Shown here piece after piece: positions 933 through 6,781 of a DNA stretch of 7,174 bases. Numbering within the stretch: the first letter of the stretch is position 1; each line of letters opens with the position of its first letter. Made by a program: the position numbers and the translations under genes. Source of the stretch: a virus (taxonomy: Duplodnaviria; Heunggongvirae; Uroviricota; Caudoviricetes); IMG/VR virus record IMGVR_UViG_2700989544_000016, one strand, 5' to 3'. The notes beneath the pieces were generated by a model. The model was not told the DNA's origin, did not search any database, and worked only from the letters and a program-made list of their open reading frames with translations.

Positions 933-1124
933 TTAAAGTCCTGCCGGTATTTCGTTATTATTAGTGTGAGTAGTTTTATCTACCGGATAACAGTTACCGG
1001 GAATTTTTTGTTCTGCTGCTGCAGCCATGCATTCTTTCATTGAACCGTATAAGCCAGTCACCAGCTCAAGAGATTCGCCGGAAACAAGATAAACTGTCAG
1101 AACGAGTGCAAATGTTGTATTCAT
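933..1124 (-). CDS. Small protein (63 aa) with a hydrophobic N-terminal segment (MNTTFALVLTVYLVSG) and 2 Cys; function unknown
   Basis: ATG at plus 1122-1124 overlaps the stop of the upstream gene as ATGA (translational coupling). AAGGA Shine-Dalgarno 8 nt upstream. Track ORF 933..1124. Confidence 0.55.
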   Translation of the reverse strand: MNTTFALVLTVYLVSGESLELVTGLYGSMKECMAAAAEQKIPGNCYPVDKTTHTNNNEIPAGL

Positions 1125-1309
1125 TGTTTATATCCTTTTTGCAGCAGGTCCAGACGAGCCAGCATTGAAGGAATGCATACTTCATTTAACAGGTCCTGCT
1201 CGAGTTTTCTCTGCTTAATGGCGTCTTCAATAAATGTTTTGTCTCCAGTGATAACGCCAATTTCGAAACGAAGTTCAGACGTGCTGGCATTACATGATAA
1301 CTTTTCCAT
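1121..1309 (-). CDS. Small early protein (62 aa), possibly Kil-like host cell-division inhibitor (tentative)
   Basis: ATG at plus 1307-1309 preceded by GAGGA 7 nt upstream. Protein MEKLSCNASTSELRFEIGVITGDKTFIEDAIKQRK... The F.I..I.GD.K.F.E.A pattern resembles my recollection of lambda Kil, which I cannot verify. The 97-aa track form starts at a GTG with no RBS and is less likely. Confidence 0.5.
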   Translation of the reverse strand: MEKLSCNASTSELRFEIGVITGDKTFIEDAIKQRKLEQDLLNEVCIPSMLARLDLLQKGYKQ

Positions 1310-1785
1310 TATCGCGTCCTCAACAATGAATTTTGTGATGCGGTGCCTAGTGCCTCCAGGTGACGTTAACCAGTTAACAATTAACGCCGGATACAGAGAA
1401 TCCACCCATAACACTGTTTTTGGTTTTAACTGTTCCGCGTGCGCTGAGCCGCATTCACCGCATCACAAAATTCACTTTTAAAAAAGGGCGGCAGAGCAGT
1501 CACGGAGTAAAACTGATACTGCCAAATGTCACCAGAATATTGATAACAGAGGGCGTTGTAGCGGGGTTGTCACTTAAGCGTATGGTCAACCTGACAACCC
1601 GGTGTCCTCAACTGGGGAAGGAATAACCCCGCCATACTTACCGCCGCGCCATTTCGCGGATTGCCACAACCGGAAGCGCACGTTCGAAGAAATCTAACGA
1701 CAAGCCTTCTAAGGGAAAGAGCTTCGCCGTACGCTTTCGCGTTGTGTGCCTGCTTTTAACCACGTCAGGCGAGGTGGTTTCCGTC

Positions 1786-1814
1786 GTTCCCCAACGACAG
1801 GAAATCTGTATAAT
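1786..1814 (+). promoter_or_regulatory. Putative plus-strand promoter for the small-ORF/membrane-protein insert: TG-TATAAT -10 with a weak -35, overlapped by a palindrome
   Basis: Perfect TATAAT at 1809-1814, immediately preceded by TG (1807-1808). The -35 position (1786-1791, GTTCCC) is poor. Inverted repeat GTCGTT-CCCC-AACGAC at 1783-1798 overlaps the -35 zone. Confidence 0.3.
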
Positions 1815-1847
1815 CTGGATATCCCCAACAACAGGAAGGTGTTTTAT

Positions 1848-2006
1848 ATGGTGGTTCAAAAGAATTGTTCAGGTACTGGTAAGCCTGCGGACAGGTCGGA
1901 CATTCCGAATACCAGGAAACATATACCTGAGAAAAACATTCGACCAAAACCATCTCCAGCTCCTTCAGAGGAGAGGGGGAACAGCAACAATCAAACAAGC
2001 AGGTGA
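1848..2006 (+). CDS. Small basic, low-complexity protein (52 aa), possibly the leader gene of the insert operon
   Basis: ATG at 1848-1850 with a strong AGGAAGG Shine-Dalgarno (1833-1839, 8-nt spacing). Its TGA (2004-2006) lies inside the RBS of the next gene. Translation MVVQKNCSGTGKPADRSDIPNTRKHIPEKNIRPKPSPAPSEERGNSNNQTSR. Coding status uncertain. Confidence 0.35.
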   Translation: MVVQKNCSGTGKPADRSDIPNTRKHIPEKNIRPKPSPAPSEERGNSNNQTSR

Positions 2007-2012
2007 TGATAT

Positions 2013-2459
2013 ATGGACCGGGATGATATTCTTGACAGGGTTTTATATGGTTATTTTCTTGAACAACTATTCTCTGTAGCGACTGGTCGTCTCGATAAAC
2101 TTCTCTCAGTGGTGAGTATTATCCTCGGTTCATCTGTCATTGGTGGATTTATTCCTGAAGTTTCTGGAGTTCTCATTGTTGTGATAGCAACCGTTCAAAC
2201 GATTTACGGATTCGGACAAAAGTCAGGTAACGCAATGAGAAAATCCGCAGAATATCTGCAGCTTTATGATGATGCAGAAAAATATTCCGATTCGGAATTG
2301 AAAATGCAGTTAAAGCTCCTGGAAAAAACAGATGATAATATTTGGTCGTCGCTTAAAGATATCGCAATCTTAAAAACCCAGATCAAAATAGGAATCTCCG
2401 TAGAACAACAAGAGAAACTGTCTGCAAAATCCAAATTGATGCGATTCCTTTGTGGTTAG
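2013..2459 (+). CDS. Two-transmembrane-helix protein (148 aa); candidate superinfection-exclusion / abortive-infection protein, in the position SieB occupies in Rac
   Basis: ATG 2013 with AGGTGA (2001-2006) 6 nt upstream. Two adjacent hydrophobic segments (LLSVVSIILGSSVIGGFI and VSGVLIVVIATVQTIYGF) followed by a charged C-terminal domain. Visibly AT-rich relative to flanks. Opposite strand to the surrounding early-left genes. Confidence 0.6.
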   Translation: MDRDDILDRVLYGYFLEQLFSVATGRLDKLLSVVSIILGSSVIGGFIPEVSGVLIVVIATVQTIYGFGQKSGNAMRKSAEYLQLYDDAEKYSDSELKMQLKLLEKTDDNIWSSLKDIAILKTQIKIGISVEQQEKLSAKSKLMRFLCG

Positions 2460-2574
2460 GAATACCCAGATTGTTAAAGAGCATGCCGGATGCTTACCCG
2501 TGTCCGGCGAACGTATTCCACTTCGCCTGTGGAGAACTCTTTAATTACTAACCTTCATCAGTCAGAGTTTCTTG

Positions 2575-2709
2575 CTAACCAGCGACGCGCGCCAGCTTCC
2601 GTTTTAAACGTTTTGCTTCTGGTAACGTCATCGCGGTGAACGTGCCGTCCAGGTTGGGGAATACTCCGCATACCAGAGATTCGTTGTTGCCAAGATTGAG
2701 CATATCCAT
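2575..2709 (-). CDS. Small ORF (44 aa) MDMLNLGNNESLVCGVFPNLDGTFTAMTLPEAKRLKRKLARVAG; possibly YdaG/YdfB-like small prophage protein (tentative)
   Basis: ATG at plus 2707-2709 with GAGGT 4 nt upstream; stop TAG at plus 2575-2577. Below the ORF-track length cutoff. Lies downstream of the minus-strand promoter at 2890-2917. The family assignment rests on memory only. Confidence 0.35.
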   Translation of the reverse strand: MDMLNLGNNESLVCGVFPNLDGTFTAMTLPEAKRLKRKLARVAG

Positions 2710-2889
2710 GTTGACCTCATTTACCCTTAACGCCGGGTCGCGGAACTAAAAACCTGCTGCGCTGTTATACAAAGTGTTCCCGCCGTCATGTTCTTACGCC
2801 TCGGGCTGGCTACTTAACCCCTGACCACTGCCTGGTAACTCTAGGTATTGCCCTGCGTTCTGTGGGGCGGAGTGGGTTGGTAAAATCAG

Positions 2890-2917
2890 TTTATACAAAA
2901 ATAAACTAAACAGTCAA
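2890..2917 (-). promoter_or_regulatory. Strong sigma70-like promoter on the minus strand (TTGACT, 16-nt spacer, TATAAA), positional analogue of lambda pL
   Basis: On the minus strand: -35 TTGACT (plus 2912-2917), 16-nt spacer, -10 TATAAA (plus 2890-2895) preceded by TG. Lies immediately downstream of the terminator hairpin of the repressor/TA operon and fires leftward. Confidence 0.4.
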
Positions 2918-2946
2918 TATTTAACTTAACTCTTTGGCAAGAATAA

Positions 2947-2962
2947 CCCCTCTTGAGAGGGG
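2947..2962 (-). terminator. Intrinsic terminator-like hairpin ending the repressor/toxin-antitoxin operon
   Basis: Perfect 6-bp GC-rich stem CCCCTC/GAGGGG with a 4-nt loop, 10 nt after the toxin stop. On the minus-strand transcript it is followed by UUAUUCUUG. Confidence 0.5.
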
Positions 2963-2972
2963 CTTAGGGGGA

Positions 2973-3260
2973 TTAAGGTGTTACAGGGAACTGTCGGCGG
3001 GCGTGAACTACGTTAACAATTTCAATGCCTGAAATTGTCACGCGGTACAGAATGATGTAATTGGGGTGAGCTACAATTTCACGCAAACCAGGCACTCTGT
3101 CGCTTGGCGGGTATAAATACGGATGTTCAGATAATGGCAGGACGCAAGTCCTTAAGCGTTTCCACAAACGTTCTGCCGCATCTATGTCAAAACGTGCAAT
3201 ATAGCTGGTTATATTATCTAGGTCGGCATCTGCGCTTTCGAGCCATAAAACCGGTAACAT
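2973..3260 (-). CDS. parE: Type II toxin, RelE/ParE superfamily (ParE-like), 95 aa
   Basis: Track ORF 2973..3260. The sequence MLPVLWLESADADLDNITSYIARFDIDAAERLWKRL...REIVAHPNYIILYRVTISGIEIVNVVHARRQF matches the conserved layout of ParE/RelE toxins. The start abuts the antitoxin stop. Confidence 0.85.
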   Translation of the reverse strand: MLPVLWLESADADLDNITSYIARFDIDAAERLWKRLRTCVLPLSEHPYLYPPSDRVPGLREIVAHPNYIILYRVTISGIEIVNVVHARRQFPVTP

Positions 3261-3452
3261 TTACTGTTTGCTCCGTTCCTTGCGCATGTTAGCAAAGCGT
3301 TCAGCCATTCTGCGTTCAACTTCGTCATGGGGAATGGCTGGACGTGGATCAGCAAGGCTTGCGGCCACTTTTGCACGCAGCCATTCGTTATAACTATTTT
3401 CTTGCTCGACGGTTTCAAATTCAGAAACCATTGGTGAAAGGGCCGTGTTCAT
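3261..3452 (-). CDS. paaA: Small antitoxin (63 aa) cognate to the ParE-like toxin, PaaA2-like
   Basis: Sits immediately upstream of the toxin and is adjacent to it. Size, order and charged C-terminal half fit PaaA-type antitoxins of three-component paaR-paaA-parE modules (from memory of E. coli O157 prophages). GAGG lies 9 nt upstream of the ATG at plus 3450-3452. Overlaps the regulator gene end by 32 nt. Confidence 0.7.
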   Translation of the reverse strand: MNTALSPMVSEFETVEQENSYNEWLRAKVAASLADPRPAIPHDEVERRMAERFANMRKERSKQ

Positions 3453-3882
3453 GGTGAACCTCGTCTTGTAAGTGCTGGTAATCCTGCCTAGGAACTTTTT
3501 GTTGTGCTGCTAGCCACTTTGCAACTATACGATCCATTGTCTCTTTTTTCTCTTTCATATCTTTAAGCATTTGCTGTTGCTCTTCCTCTGGAAATGCCTC
3601 AAATGTTTGAAGTAGTTCCTTTTGCGTAGGGGTTATTTTTAATATATCCTGTGCCCTGTCCTTATTTTCTTCATTTAATGGTAAGAAAAACCAATACTGA
3701 GGAAATCCAGTCACATCAGATAGTTTATCTAGGTTGGCTGCTGTAGGGCTTGAGATGCCACAAGCCCACCTTTGGACGGATTGTTGAGCAATACCAATTC
3801 TGCGCGCAAGTTCTGCTTGGCTCCAGCCTTTTGCCAATAGAAGCATCTTAATTCTAAGAGCACTAATTTCGAGTACGCCCAT
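3421..3882 (-). CDS. paaR: HTH_XRE transcriptional regulator (153 aa), PaaR-like / DicA-like, paralogous to the adjacent repressor
   Basis: N-terminal helix-turn-helix (SQAELARRIGIAQQSVQRWACG). The central segment ITPTQKELLQTFEAFPEEEQQQMLKDMKEKKETMDRIVAKWLAAQ is clearly homologous to the C-terminus of the neighbouring repressor. No LexA-type peptidase domain. Confidence 0.8.
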   Translation of the reverse strand: MGVLEISALRIKMLLLAKGWSQAELARRIGIAQQSVQRWACGISSPTAANLDKLSDVTGFPQYWFFLPLNEENKDRAQDILKITPTQKELLQTFEAFPEEEQQQMLKDMKEKKETMDRIVAKWLAAQQKVPRQDYQHLQDEVHHEHGPFTNGF

Positions 3883-3912
3883 CTGATATCTCTTGTTTTA
3901 GTAAGTATCCCG

Positions 3913-4284
3913 TCAGGCTCGGCGACCCTGCCGCGCCAACCAACGTGCAACAAGATCTTCCATTGCCTCTTTTTTGTTTCTTAGCTCTTTTATGATTTCC
4001 TGCTGCTCAGCGTCAGGAAAAGCACTAAATATTTGCAACAATTCCAATTGGTTAGGCGTTAATGCCATAGTTCTTGATGACGGAGATTCTGTTGTATCTT
4101 CAGGTTCCATATCAAGATACCCCCCAGGCATCCCATATGTTTGCTCAATACGTCTAGCTGCCTTTTCGCCAAACGTAGCTTTACCGCTCATTAACTGAGA
4201 TAAGTAACTTTTCTCTTTAGGCGGCAAAGTCCTGTCTTTGAACCACTCTTTGAGGCGTAAACGCCGAATCTCTTTTGTTTCCAT
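3913..4284 (-). CDS. Prophage repressor (123 aa), DicA/RacR-like, lacking an S24 peptidase domain
   Basis: Sits at the divergent promoter region opposite the cro-like gene. N-terminal phage-CI-type HTH (KEKSYLSQLMSGKATFGEKAARRIEQTYGMPGGYLD). C-terminal LTPNQLELLQIFSAFPDAEQQEIIKELRNKKEAMEDLVARWLARQ resembles my recollection of DicA. No SD before the ATG, consistent with a leaderless transcript. Confidence 0.8.
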   Translation of the reverse strand: METKEIRRLRLKEWFKDRTLPPKEKSYLSQLMSGKATFGEKAARRIEQTYGMPGGYLDMEPEDTTESPSSRTMALTPNQLELLQIFSAFPDAEQQEIIKELRNKKEAMEDLVARWLARQGRRA

Positions 4285-4290
4285 ACATGC

Positions 4291-4370
4291 ATTATCTTTA
4301 GTAATCGCAAAACAAGCAAATGCTTGACTGGTTTATTTAGTTGCGAATAAACTCTTGCTTGTTCTAAATG
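4291..4370. promoter_or_regulatory. Divergent promoter/operator region of the genetic switch
   Basis: Inverted repeats AACAAGCAA (4311-4319) / TTGCTTGTT (4355-4363) and TCGCAA (4305-4310) / TTGCGA (4341-4346); palindrome CAAGCA-AA-TGCTTG (4313-4326). Rightward -35 TTGACT (4324-4329) with a weak -10 (ATAAAC, 4347-4352). Leftward -35 TTGCTT (plus 4314-4319) and -10 GATAAT (plus 4291-4296), ending 6 nt before the repressor ATG. Confidence 0.5.
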
Positions 4371-4386
4371 TGCTGAGATAAAAATT

Positions 4387-4668
4387 ATGACGCTAAAGGA
4401 ATTCATCAAATCATTAAAAACTGGAGAAGCAAAAAAATTTGCGACCAATCTTGGTGTGTCTCCGTCTTTCTTGTCCCAAATGGCATCTGGAACTTCACCT
4501 GTGTCTCCTGTTCGTGCGTTGATGATAGAAGCAGAAACTGGGGGACATGTTACAAGACGAGAATTGAGACCTAATGACTGGGAGCTTATATGGCCCGAAT
4601 ACACGGGAATCACGTCCCCTTCACGTCACAAATATGAACTTAACACCAAAAAGGCTGATGGAGGTTGA
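4387..4668 (+). CDS. Cro-like HTH protein (YdaS-type), 93 aa
   Basis: Divergent from the repressor. The N-terminal sequence KKFATNLGVSPSFLSQMASG reads as an HTH. Track ORF 4387..4668. Weak RBS. Confidence 0.7.
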   Translation: MTLKEFIKSLKTGEAKKFATNLGVSPSFLSQMASGTSPVSPVRALMIEAETGGHVTRRELRPNDWELIWPEYTGITSPSRHKYELNTKKADGG

Positions 4669-4671
4669 TTC

Positions 4672-5097
4672 ATGAAAATCAAGCATGAGCACATCCGCAT
4701 GGCGATCAATGCTTGGGCCTATCCGGACGGTGAGAAAGTTCCTGCAGCTGAAATAGCCCGGACTTATTTCGAACTGGGGATGACGTTCCCTGAACTGTAC
4801 GACGATACTCATCCAGGCGCTCTGGGTCTTAATACCCAGAAGATTTTCCGCTGGGTAAAGAAAGATACTCCTGATGCCGTTGAAAAAATGCAGGCTCTGT
4901 TACCAGCTATCGAAAAAGCAATGCCGCCTCTGCTGGTGGCCCGAATGCGCAGCCACAGTTCCGCTTATTTTCGGGAGTTGGTAGAGACGAAGGAACGGCT
5001 GGTGAAAGATATTGATGATTTCGTTGCATCAGCGATCGTTCTGTTCGATCAGATGAATCGTGGTGGCCCGGCAGGAAACACTCTGGCTGTGCATTAA
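4672..5097 (+). CDS. YdaT-like protein (141 aa), probable functional analogue of CII
   Basis: ATG 4672 with a strong GGAGG (4660-4664, 7-nt spacing), 3 nt after the cro-like stop. Position after cro, and the MKIKHEHI... start, match my recollection of YdaT-family proteins; unverified. Confidence 0.55.
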   Translation: MKIKHEHIRMAINAWAYPDGEKVPAAEIARTYFELGMTFPELYDDTHPGALGLNTQKIFRWVKKDTPDAVEKMQALLPAIEKAMPPLLVARMRSHSSAYFRELVETKERLVKDIDDFVASAIVLFDQMNRGGPAGNTLAVH

Positions 5098-5837: not shown

Positions 5838-6149
5838 ATGCGTGATTACGCAAAAGTTTCTCCGCGATTCTGGCTGGGAGAAACGGGGAGAGAACTTAGA
5901 AAGGCGGGTGCAGAAGCGCAAGTTGTTGCTTTTTACCTGATGACATCCCCTCACGCAAATATGCTGGGTTTGTATTACCTGCCAGTTTTATACCTTGCTC
6001 ATGAAACCGGGCTTGGTCTGGAAGGGGCTTCAAAGGGGCTTCAAAGGGGCTTAAAAGGGCTGTTGAAGCTGGTTTTTGTAGCTATGACCATGATGCAGAG
6101 ATGGTCTGGGTCCATGAAATGGCAGCCTGGCAGGTTGGGGAAACGTTGA
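5838..6149 (+). CDS. Replication initiator (lambda O-equivalent, YdaU-like), N-terminal part; the frame is broken inside the 11-bp repeat at 6022-6065 (frameshift or assembly error)
   Basis: Frame-3 ORF. Likely start is ATG 5838 (GAGG 5 nt upstream, MRDYAKVSPRFWLGETGRELRKAG...); the alternative ATG 5727 is in frame but has no RBS. After ...LAHETGLGLEGASKGL the conserved-looking reading continues in frame 2, not frame 3. Confidence 0.6.
   Translation: MRDYAKVSPRFWLGETGRELRKAGAEAQVVAFYLMTSPHANMLGLYYLPVLYLAHETGLGLEGASKGLQRGLKGLLKLVFVAMTMMQRWSGSMKWQPGRLGKR
6022..6065. repeat. Iteron-like 11-bp tandem repeat cluster 1 (AAGGGGCTTCA x2, AAGGGGCTTAA, degenerate AAGGGCTGTTG)
   Basis: Direct reading of the sequence: units at 6022-6032, 6033-6043 and 6044-6054, with a degenerate unit at 6055-6065. 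One helical turn per unit. Confidence 0.7.
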
Positions 6150-6670
6150 AGCCTGGCGATAACCGTTGTGCAGGTGTCAGGAATGAGTATGCATCATTAC
6201 CTGAAAACGCTTTTCTGTCAGTGTTTTACGACAGATATAAAACGGATTTCCATCTGGATGTGAGGCGGAATAATAGCCGAAATTCGGTAAGGGGCTTCGA
6301 AGGGGCTTTTAAGGGGCTTCGAAGCCAAGAACAGGAACAGGAGCAGGAGAAAGAACAGGAACAGGACAAAAACACTATGGTTCATGGCAAAAAAAACACC
6401 ACGAACCAGGCAGGGGATGTTCAGACCGTCAATCCTGGTCAGCCAGCAGGCACGACACCGGAAGCCGATTCAGCGTATGCGCTGAAAGCCGATTCGGGCG
6501 CTGTGCAGCAGGTGATGACCGCAGGGTCGGAGCAATCACACCAACTGCAGCAGCCTGAAGCCGATTCCGCCATTCAGCGGGAAGCCGATCGGGTAGTCCC
6601 GGAAAGCACCGGGCAGTCTGTGGGACGAGTGGATTATCCGGATGTGTTCGAACAGGTCTGGCGGGAATAC
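6101..6670 (+). CDS. Replication initiator, C-terminal part in the shifted frame, truncated by the assembly gap
   Basis: Frame 2 is open from 6005 to the gap and encodes ...KRAVEAGFCSYDHDAEMVWVHEMAAWQVGETLKPGDNRCAGVRNEYASLPENAFLSVFYDRYKTDFHLDVRR... plus a QEQEQEQEKEQEQDK linker. Deleting one 11-bp repeat unit joins it in frame to the upstream part. Confidence 0.6.
6289..6326. repeat. Iteron-like 11-bp tandem repeat cluster 2 (AAGGGGCTTCG, AAGGGGCTTTT, AAGGGGCTTCG) with flanking palindromes; candidate origin core
   Basis: Units at 6289-6299, 6300-6310 and 6311-6321. Palindromes CCGAAATTCGG (6277-6287) and GGCTTCGAAGCC (6315-6326). The 33 bp are in frame, encoding RGFEGAFKGLRS. Confidence 0.65.
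6329..6364. repeat. Imperfect hexanucleotide repeat (GAACAG)n encoding a Q/E-rich linker, followed by an A-rich tract
   Basis: GAACAG GAACAG GAGCAG GAGAAA GAACAG GAACAG, then ACAAAAACACTATGGTTCATGGCAAAAAAAACACC (6366-6400). Confidence 0.6.
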
Positions 6671-6781
6671 NNNNNNNNNNNNNNNNNNNNNNNNNNNNNN
6701 NNNNNNNNNNNNNNNNNNNNNNNNNNNNNNNNNNNNNNNNNNNNNNNNNNNNNNNNNNNNNNNNNNNNNNNNNNNNNNNNN
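6671..6781. other. Assembly gap (111 N)
   Basis: A run of n characters. True length and sequence are unknown, so frames cannot be carried across it. Confidence 0.95.

Follow-up and report, generated by a model that had tools for sequence, protein, structure and literature searches.

A 7,174-nucleotide (nt) stretch of viral DNA (Caudoviricetes; IMG/VR record IMGVR_UViG_2700989544_000016; in its whole length, the window) contains, in the gap at positions 2460-2940, a conserved structured RNA of 108 nt that is encoded on the minus strand directly after a leftward promoter. The window comes from an Escherichia coli lambdoid prophage of the Rac/Qin/CP-933P type, of which it is the immunity and early region, and the gap is 100% identical to two complete E. 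coli chromosomes. An earlier sequence-only reading had found no open reading frame (ORF) of 60 amino acids (aa) or more in the gap, as an ORF listing confirms, and had proposed that it contains a counterpart of the lambda pL promoter, a long leader and a 44-aa ORF. The promoter is of an already known kind and the ORF an ordinary pseudogene; the leader represents a well-supported RNA family of which we found no description. This RNA is very probably real and under selection. Its most likely role, which we propose tentatively, is to control, in cis, how the early-left transcript is elongated or terminated.

The leader is a conserved structured RNA

The leader runs for 172 nt from its likely start, A2881, to the ATG at 2709, close to the 170 nt predicted from sequence alone. 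Its first 108 nt form the conserved element, which has the following parts.

2774-2881, minus strand: conserved structured leader RNA, 108 nt (covariance model R1, 103.5 bits, E about 1e-35)
2881, minus strand: probable transcript start, an A lying 7 nt after TAAACT and coinciding with position 1 of the RNA model (from promoter geometry)
2874-2878, minus strand: 5' arm of helix P1, pairing with 2777-2781 (2-3 of 5 pairs here; 92% paired in the family)
2862-2873, minus strand: 5' arm of P2a/P2c, pairing with 2817-2828
2851-2857, minus strand: 5' arm of P2b, pairing with 2829-2835, with a 4-nt A-rich bulge (2858-2861) ahead of it
2836-2850, minus strand: apical loop CAAUACCUAGAGUUA (family consensus CAAUACCnCGAGUUA, nearly invariant)
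2782-2816, minus strand: invariant strand UAAGUAGCCAGCCCGAGGCGUAAGAACAUGACGGC, 35 nt, defined by invariant columns
2808-2810 with 2798-2800, minus strand: possible helix P3 of 3 base pairs (bp), inside the invariant strand and without variation in any copy
2802-2799 and 2789-2787, minus strand: GAGG and AUG within the invariant strand, 9 nt apart
2727-2789, minus strand: possible 20-codon leader ORF (MTAGTLCITAQQVFSSATRR) starting in the invariant strand, as read from the sequence

The architecture is thus a closing helix P1, a long bulged hairpin P2 capped by CAAUACCnCGAGUUA and a possible short P3, with about 45 invariant bases overall. The predicted 5' end of the transcript is the A of AUACC/ACCAACCC, at window position 2881. 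The 5' arms are rich in C and A and poor in G, and P2 of the window copy contains a 3x3 internal loop (2866-2868 / 2822-2824).

We evaluated the structure by bringing the helix arms into register, first with the invariant blocks as anchors and then in a gapless seed of 11 sequences. In the anchor-based test, the P2 hairpin was more stable than shuffled arms in all 26 sequences (mean z = -2.5), and the three-part shape was constant. For the seed, a bulged A after GGC was taken out of four sequences to keep P1 in register. In this alignment, 84.2% of pair cells were paired, compared to 62.6% after shuffling (0/500), and sliding the partners by 1-3 columns left 30-44% paired; both sides change in 22 of the 27 pairs. 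Counts over 62 distinct real sequences, all unedited, gave a similar picture, with 85.7% of cells paired versus 62.2% in shuffled controls (0/500) and 24 of 27 pairs covarying through changes on both sides. Across these 62 sequences P1 is 92% paired, with at least four pair types at each position. RNAalifold on MAFFT alignments recovered the invariant 3-bp P3 alone, because the arms are out of register in those alignments.

The covariance model matched the window copy (2881-2774) and 66 further significant copies, all of them in Enterobacterales or viral loci. Applied to 10 loci from unrelated phyla, it returned two matches, both marginal and pattern-driven. The leader is more conserved than the surrounding genes and carries compensatory changes, and the suggestion that it could be a regulatory RNA is well borne out by the covariation tests. 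We also considered a coding leader and rejected it: ORFs are short in all frames, and the ORF that begins at AUG 2789 has no conserved length or frame, both of which differ between lineages, with 1-nt indels in its 3' part.

The RNA forms the 5' end of the early-left transcript

Conservation begins straight after each lineage's own -10 element. Most lineages have a strong, non-homologous sigma70 promoter whose end lies 5-14 nt (mode 9-10) ahead of model position 1, whereas the opposite side of the element has only weak promoter matches (mean score 6.7 of 12). From this geometry we conclude that the RNA is the 5' end of the leftward transcript. The exception is the Symbiopectobacterium copies, which have no adjacent promoter. 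A terminator scan found none on the plus strand near the element. With TAAACT ending at 2888 and the element beginning at 2881 in the window, we infer that transcription starts at about A2881. The promoter region has these features.

2888-2917, minus strand: PL-type promoter, with -35 TTGACT at 2917-2912 and two overlapping -10 registers
2911-2903, minus strand: operator-like GTTTAGTTT
2930-2922, minus strand: operator-like GTTAAGTTA

In the first register, TTGACT is followed after 16 nt by TATAAA (2895-2890), the arrangement originally described beyond the repressor/toxin-antitoxin (TA) terminator and indeed present there. The second register, from a promoter scan, is TTGACT-18-TAAACT (2917-2888, with TAAACT at 2893-2888). 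On the plus strand, a rightward promoter at 4324-4353 has the same hexamers and spacing, TTGACT-18-TAAACT, and the two 30-nt arms are 77% identical in inverted orientation. Matches to the promoter consensus are not above chance in this AT-rich region (5 found versus 5.2 expected in 1300-4500). We nevertheless consider the promoter at 2888-2917 real because of its inverted symmetry with 4324-4353, its placement at the PL933P position and the presence of promoters at a fixed distance before the RNA in unrelated lineages. The operator half-site GTTTAGTAA, allowing up to 2 mismatches, clusters at 2903-2911, 2922-2930, 4296-4306 and 4331-4339, with window-wide occurrence equal to chance (20 versus 20).

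PL933P is the corresponding promoter of prophage CP-933P in E. coli O157:H7. It lies beyond paaR2-paaA2-parE2, carries the same -35 and -10 sequences as PR933P, is active, and is repressed about 100-fold by PaaR2 and by YdaS; its authors could assign no function to anything downstream (Jurenas et al. 2021, mBio; PMC8630535). The window promoter likewise sits just past parE2 of a repressor-paaA2-parE2 operon, and its hexamers equal those of its rightward partner. The TA genes of the window and O157:H7 are about 85% identical. In both systems the leader RNA follows the promoter: in phage Evi, which has the PL933P primer sequence, the model match starts 1 base later. The two differ in promoter and operator sequence, in spacer length (18 nt in the window, 16 nt in Evi) and in an extra repressor-like gene in the window (3913-4284 and 3421-3882). 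Because window positions 2860-2985 do not align to O157:H7 by megablast, the window represents a related immunity variant and not the O157:H7 one.

Position after the repressor/TA operon, hexamers and spacing in common with the pR-like promoter and the published PL933P result identify 2888-2917 as a sigma70-type pL equivalent, in agreement with the earlier assignment. Repression by CI-like and Cro-like proteins is known for PL933P and, by likeness, may be expected at the window promoter. In the published PL933P-gfp fusion, the reverse primer ends 1 base before the element as it occurs in phage Evi; the sole experimental work on this promoter family therefore left the element out.

The 44-aa ORF is the remnant of a DUF1391 gene

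Downstream of the leader lies the following gene.

2558-2709, minus strand: DUF1391 (YdfA/YdaF family) pseudogene, recognised by Pfam matches in two frames, by PGAP and by its relatives

The 44-aa ORF proposed at 2575-2709 is present, with GAGG at 2718-2715, 5 nt ahead of its ATG, but it is not an intact small gene. It covers positions 2-37 of the 48-position Pfam profile PF07151 (55 bits), and positions 29-48 are matched in the other frame (34 bits) within a 37-aa ORF at 2558-2671. No single-frame, full-length PF07151 match was found in the window gene, whereas an intact relative matches positions 2-48 with 98.5 bits. Near-identical prophages have one base more and an intact 50-aa DUF1391 gene: a 1-nt deletion of an A between 2625 and 2624 separates the window from them, and the rest of the 421 aligned bases are identical. 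PGAP labels the identical sequence "DUF1391 family protein, frameshifted". Since the frameshifted allele occurs in two independent complete genomes, a sequencing error is unlikely and the allele is probably real. By sequence comparison, then, the 44-aa ORF is the 5' remnant of a broken DUF1391 gene. A YdaG/YdfB-like peptide had been anticipated, and the homolog search returned YdfA/YdaF instead.

The element is widespread in Enterobacterales prophages

The leader RNA is present in 3,873 of 5,426 complete E. coli genomes (about 70%), with up to 7 copies in each, and no annotation lies under any of 40 matches sampled across the ranking. In the Rac prophage of K-12, about 105 nt of leader in the racR-ydaG spacer are approximately 93% identical to the window (107.5 bits with the covariance model), while the promoters are unrelated. 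Throughout the phages and prophages, the element always follows a repressor gene, of the RacR, DicA-like, LexA-like CI or PaaR2 type, and the first gene after it varies (DUF1391, ydaG, ydfC and others). Each immunity region has one copy, on the PL side only.

To collect diverged copies, we scanned one genome per species for an invariant 17-mer, a search in which about 70 chance matches are expected. Matches outside Enterobacterales were removed by nhmmer and the covariance model. The remaining copies come from Pectobacterium, Superficieibacter, Winslowiella, Serratia, Pantoea, Symbiopectobacterium and Arsenophonus/Phlomobacter. Their helix arms are wholly different in sequence, and the loop and 35-nt strand are invariant.

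Several loci show particular arrangements. In E. coli E2348/69 (locus L010, 1201-1527) and phage Tritos (L008, 2589-2825), the AUG of the invariant strand and the DUF1391 start share one reading frame, which is one common E. coli variant of the leader; the Tritos annotation has a 78-aa protein starting within the structured RNA. Insect symbionts are rich in the element. A single Symbiopectobacterium purcellii genome holds at least seven copies (seven loci here), which have in common an upstream CCACC…GGTGG hairpin, and in Arsenophonus the element occurs at many loci, including pairs about 2 kb apart on the same strand. The element also occurs at 2502-2609 of "Actinobacillus phage vB_Apl-pPE4" (L005, PP818812.1; 81 bits), whose recorded host is Actinobacillus pleuropneumoniae and which has the DicA-, YdaT-, Kil- and RecE-type genes that E. 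coli Rac-like prophages typically carry; its host assignment may be questionable, or it may reflect a recent transfer.

Nut-like features downstream of the element

Two further features of the same transcript bear on antitermination.

2712-2773, minus strand: second conserved block, with GCGCAGCAGG, AGUUCCGCG and the hairpin CCC-GGCGUUAA-GGG (2737-2724)
2483-2471, minus strand (transcript strand): exact rrn-type boxA TGCTCTTTAACAA, just past the DUF1391 pseudogene

The stem of the 2737-2724 hairpin covaries in relatives (CCC/GGG, GCC/GGC, GCCG/CGGC, GCCAG/CUGGC), where the loop is boxB-like, GAAAGA or GGCGACAA; the window loop is GGCGUUAA. The block may be a diverged nut-like site. An exact 13-mer boxA is expected about 2e-4 times in the window. 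The one at 2483-2471 lies roughly 290 nt downstream of the 108-nt element, which itself has none, and it is absent from most E. coli copies, as well as from the PPompW homolog, the closest for that segment. Hairpins at 2487-2510 and 2505-2527 (minus strand) precede it and are kept in PPompW/Stx2a phages. A Pfam search found no N-like protein encoded in the window. The earlier statement that an N-like antiterminator is lacking therefore stands, but not its companion that no boxB-like site is evident, given the exact boxA and the covarying hairpin.

Arsenophonus presents a different arrangement. There, CGCTCTTTAAC and a hairpin with a GAAAA loop come within 15-20 nt after the element, and an ORF with an arginine-rich N-terminus follows them. 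This ORF gave the sole N_peptide match, a weak one (E = 0.003) below the Pfam cut-off. These immunity regions contain two opposed boxA sites and one element. Where N is present, the element thus accompanies nutL, on its upstream side, and is no substitute for it.

Comparison with known RNAs and operons

At E <= 1, no Rfam 15 family matches 2460-2940 or the element of five diverged loci. Searching the literature by gene names, by topic and by core sequence, we found no description of the RNA; the core-sequence matches were unrelated papers. Other elements known from such prophages were also considered and set aside. The Rho-dependent terminator trac of Rac is a different element, located inside racR and read from PRM, and the Pas small RNAs (sRNAs), AgvB/AsxR and other reviewed phage sRNAs are located elsewhere in the prophage. 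An RfaH ops motif (GGCGGTAG..TG) after GACGGC was a loose match made by eye, with about 9 of 12 positions in Symbiopectobacterium and fewer in E. coli, and was likewise discarded.

The closest functional parallel is the put RNA of phage HK022, which is about 73 nt long and consists of two stem-loops with a short triplex (PMC9378689). Like putL, the leader RNA lies at the very 5' end of a lambdoid PL transcript and is a structured, cis-acting candidate without a dedicated protein; its E. coli copies are found in phages without a recognisable N gene. The put RNA binds the zinc-binding domain of the RNA polymerase beta' subunit and suppresses termination and pausing; for the leader RNA, a comparable action is conceivable. 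The two differ in architecture (108 nt with a closing helix and junction versus two stem-loops), and they have no similarity in sequence or structure: with filters off, the best score was 6.4 bits (E = 0.89), in the nun-cI-cro-cII (PL-PR) region of HK022. The leader RNA is not a homolog of put.

Lambda nut sites with N also are leader elements of an early-left transcript. Unlike them, the 108-nt element has neither boxA (CGCTCTTTAACAA-like) nor boxB and lies upstream of both. Lambda boxB has a GNRA-like pentaloop and an adjacent N gene, whereas the window hairpin at 2737-2724 has the loop GGCGUUAA and is not accompanied by an N-like protein. Riboswitches as a class are likewise conserved, junction-type 5' leaders, a description that fits the three helices and roughly 45 invariant bases seen here.

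At the level of the operon, the window is of the same type as the dicB operon of K-12 Qin (dicBp-ydfA-ydfB-ydfC-dicF-dicB) and the early-left operon of Rac (ydaG-ydaF-...-kilR-recET). All have a repressor-controlled leftward promoter, a DUF1391 gene in first or second place, and DicF and DicB downstream. Qin differs in that it retains no more than roughly the final 35 nt of the leader, the 108-nt element being absent. In Rac, ydaG is inserted between the leader and ydaF. The window, for its part, has a frameshifted DUF1391 gene.

Gene layout of the prophage

The remaining features place the leader between the immunity genes and the early-left operon.

3913-4284, minus strand: repressor-like gene, 123 aa
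3421-3882, minus strand: helix-turn-helix gene, 153 aa
3261-3452, minus strand: PaaA2 antitoxin
2973-3260, minus strand: ParE toxin
2945-2962, minus strand: intrinsic-terminator-like hairpin, CCCCTC-TCAA-GAGGGG then TTATTCTTG (terminator scan, site 2960-2947, and sequence reading)
2013-2459, plus strand: 148-aa ORF at the sieB position
1486-1537, minus strand: full-length DicF sRNA (Rfam RF00039, 69.3 bits against a gathering score of 48)
1121-1315, minus strand: DicB gene
4387-5097, right side: YdaS/Cro-like and YdaT/CII-like genes

The terminator-like hairpin, about 30 nt upstream of the PL -35, closes the repressor/PaaA2-ParE2 operon. Genes for a DUF1482 protein and an exonuclease also lie to the left of the gap on the minus strand. 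The order DicF then dicB marks a dicBF-type operon driven from the promoter at 2888-2917. Between these two genes, at 1332-1472 (minus), there is a weak match to STnc100 (33.9 bits, gathering score 47), an RNA linked to the prophage sRNA PasD by a 2026 preprint.

The tandem repressor-like genes at 3913-4284 and 3421-3882 (minus) have paralogous C-terminal halves (…ELLQIFSAFPDAEQQEIIKEL… and …ELLQTFEAFPEEEQQQMLKDM…), with a half-site-like TTTTAGTAA between them at 3896-3904. In Winslowiella and Pantoea, the gene directly upstream of the leader RNA is a homolog of the 123-aa type. A Lys/Pro/Arg-rich ORF of 52 codons (MVVQKNCSGTGKPADRSDIPNTRKH…; 1848-2006, plus) lies upstream of the sieB-position ORF and is convergent with the early-left transcript. 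Units GGGGCTTCAAAGGGGCTTCAAAGGGGCTTAAAAGGGC and GGGGCTTCGAAGGGGCTTTTAAGGGGCTTCGAAG recur at about 6020-6065 and 6290-6325 (plus) within putative replication-protein genes; they are iteron-like and perhaps the sign of a phage origin. At 6671-6781, in the replication-gene region, 111 consecutive N (an assembly gap or masking) make the ORFs called over them unreliable.

A proposed role in transcription elongation

The early-left operon of this Rac/CP-933P-type lambdoid prophage begins in the gap at 2460-2940. We propose that the RNA folds on emerging and works in cis, on the transcription complex that makes it or on the transcript it belongs to, thereby setting how far RNA polymerase reaches into the long leftward operon (DicF, DicB, the exonuclease and beyond). 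It could do so in one of two ways: the complex might be made resistant to termination or pausing, or the C-rich 5' half of the RNA might be hidden from Rho. Its function would resemble that of the HK022 put RNA, although it is a different molecule. In Rac, whose leftward operon carries the leader but no recognisable N gene, removal of RacR induces that operon 40-fold to more than 100-fold, out to recE and intR.

Several observations weigh against this proposal. The K-12 Qin prophage has no copy of the element, yet its dicBF operon is expressed on derepression. In Arsenophonus, the element stands upstream of a standard boxA, a boxB and an N-like gene, so that antitermination there comes from another provider. 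The put RNA occurs at both PL and PR, whereas the leader RNA is present in a single copy in the window, even with filters off. Base-pair statistics alone leave the strand unfixed, as A·C cells outnumber G·U cells overall (65 versus 33). The window copy is mismatched in P1 and P2b; it is also the weakest folder in the P2 anchor test (z = -0.53), and single-sequence folding of the whole window leader gives z = +1.86. It may be decaying along with the neighbouring pseudogene, and because of its several mismatches, its single-sequence fold is misleading. Finally, the case for the RNA itself is built from comparative computation.

The first alternative, which has a modest chance of being correct, is a sensor leader. 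The junction would bind a small molecule or a conserved host or phage protein and so control access to GAGG 2802-2799 and AUG 2789-2787; translation of the short leader ORF, which begins with codons lying over the P1 3' arm, would then set the operon's Rho sensitivity or translation. The architecture and degree of conservation are typical of aptamers, and the invariant strand contains GAGG-9nt-AUG, in which GAGG would be sequestered in P3. In the window, the stop codon of the leader ORF falls in the loop of the following hairpin, 18 nt ahead of the DUF1391 start; in leaders of the E2348/Tritos type this ORF is in frame with DUF1391. However, two Arsenophonus/Phlomobacter copies have AUA and Pantoea has GAG in place of the AUG, peptide length and frame are not conserved, and the candidate has no known ligand or partner. 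The strict 5'-terminal position is atypical of riboswitches, and no Rfam riboswitch matches.

Somewhat less probable is a role in stability or processing, with the element acting as a 5' shield of the early-left transcript against decay that depends on the 5' end, as a self-cleaving or RNase-targeted module that detaches the leader from the mRNA, or in trimming read-through from the repressor operon. A helix close to the 5' end protects against RNase E entry, and P1 begins a few nt from the presumed 5' end in nearly all lineages, yet simple protection would not need some 45 invariant bases. For processing, the combination of three-helix junction and invariant core is a small-ribozyme pattern, but no known ribozyme class was matched and no cleavage-site signature was identified in the element.

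We also doubt that the leader is released as a stable RNA of about 110 nt that acts in trans on targets of the host or of competing phages. Such an RNA would come into play as soon as induction or infection begins and might, for instance, serve to decoy a host factor or a defence system. It would be the first RNA made from PL, it is near-identical across heteroimmune prophages with up to 7 copies per genome, and prophage leaders and 3' ends elsewhere do yield sRNAs, DicF in the same operon among them. Nonetheless, the element is not followed by a terminator, the window contains no site complementary to the invariant strands, and no such sRNA appears in the literature searched, including an O157 Hfq-crosslinking study and a review of phage-derived sRNAs.

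It is very improbable that the plus strand is the functional one, as an antisense RNA ending at the promoter, or that the element works as DNA. The excess of A·C cells, which are G·U on the other strand, and the recurrence of A·C in P2b would fit an antisense RNA, as would unconstrained folding (z of -0.57 for the antisense strand versus -0.25). At well-paired positions, though, G·U prevails (23 versus 16), no promoter faces in from the other side, the sense promoters lie at a fixed distance, and the plus strand has no terminator. A plain untranslated leader before a genuine 44-aa gene is scarcely credible: an ORF with a ribosome-binding site exists, but it is a truncated DUF1391 whose intact 50-aa form is one base away, and the compensatory changes in the leader, together with the Pfam matches and relatives, refute it.

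Significance

Rac/Qin/CP-933P-type prophages are found in most E. coli genomes, and their leftward operons encode protective as well as toxic functions, among them KilR, DicB, DicF, RecET and excision. To our knowledge, how transcription reaches genes more than 10 kb away in these operons without an N protein has had no explanation so far. Lying at the exact 5' end of the transcript and omitted from the published fusion, the element is a concrete candidate for the missing control step.

At minimum, the 108-nt RNA is a well-supported candidate for a new RNA family and is worth annotating. It could, as we tentatively suggest, represent a new class of phage leader RNA without a dedicated protein, either a second reprogrammer of RNA polymerase, structurally unrelated to put, or a new sensor of host signals. 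If so, it would be among the commonest uncharacterised regulatory RNAs in E. coli, since about 70% of genomes carry it. Were RNA polymerase or Rho its target, it would bring the types of protein-independent antitermination RNA known in phages to just two. Were it a sensor instead, it would tie prophage gene expression to the physiology of the host and gate the whole early-left programme of Rac-type prophages, with its host-killing, recombination and excision genes.

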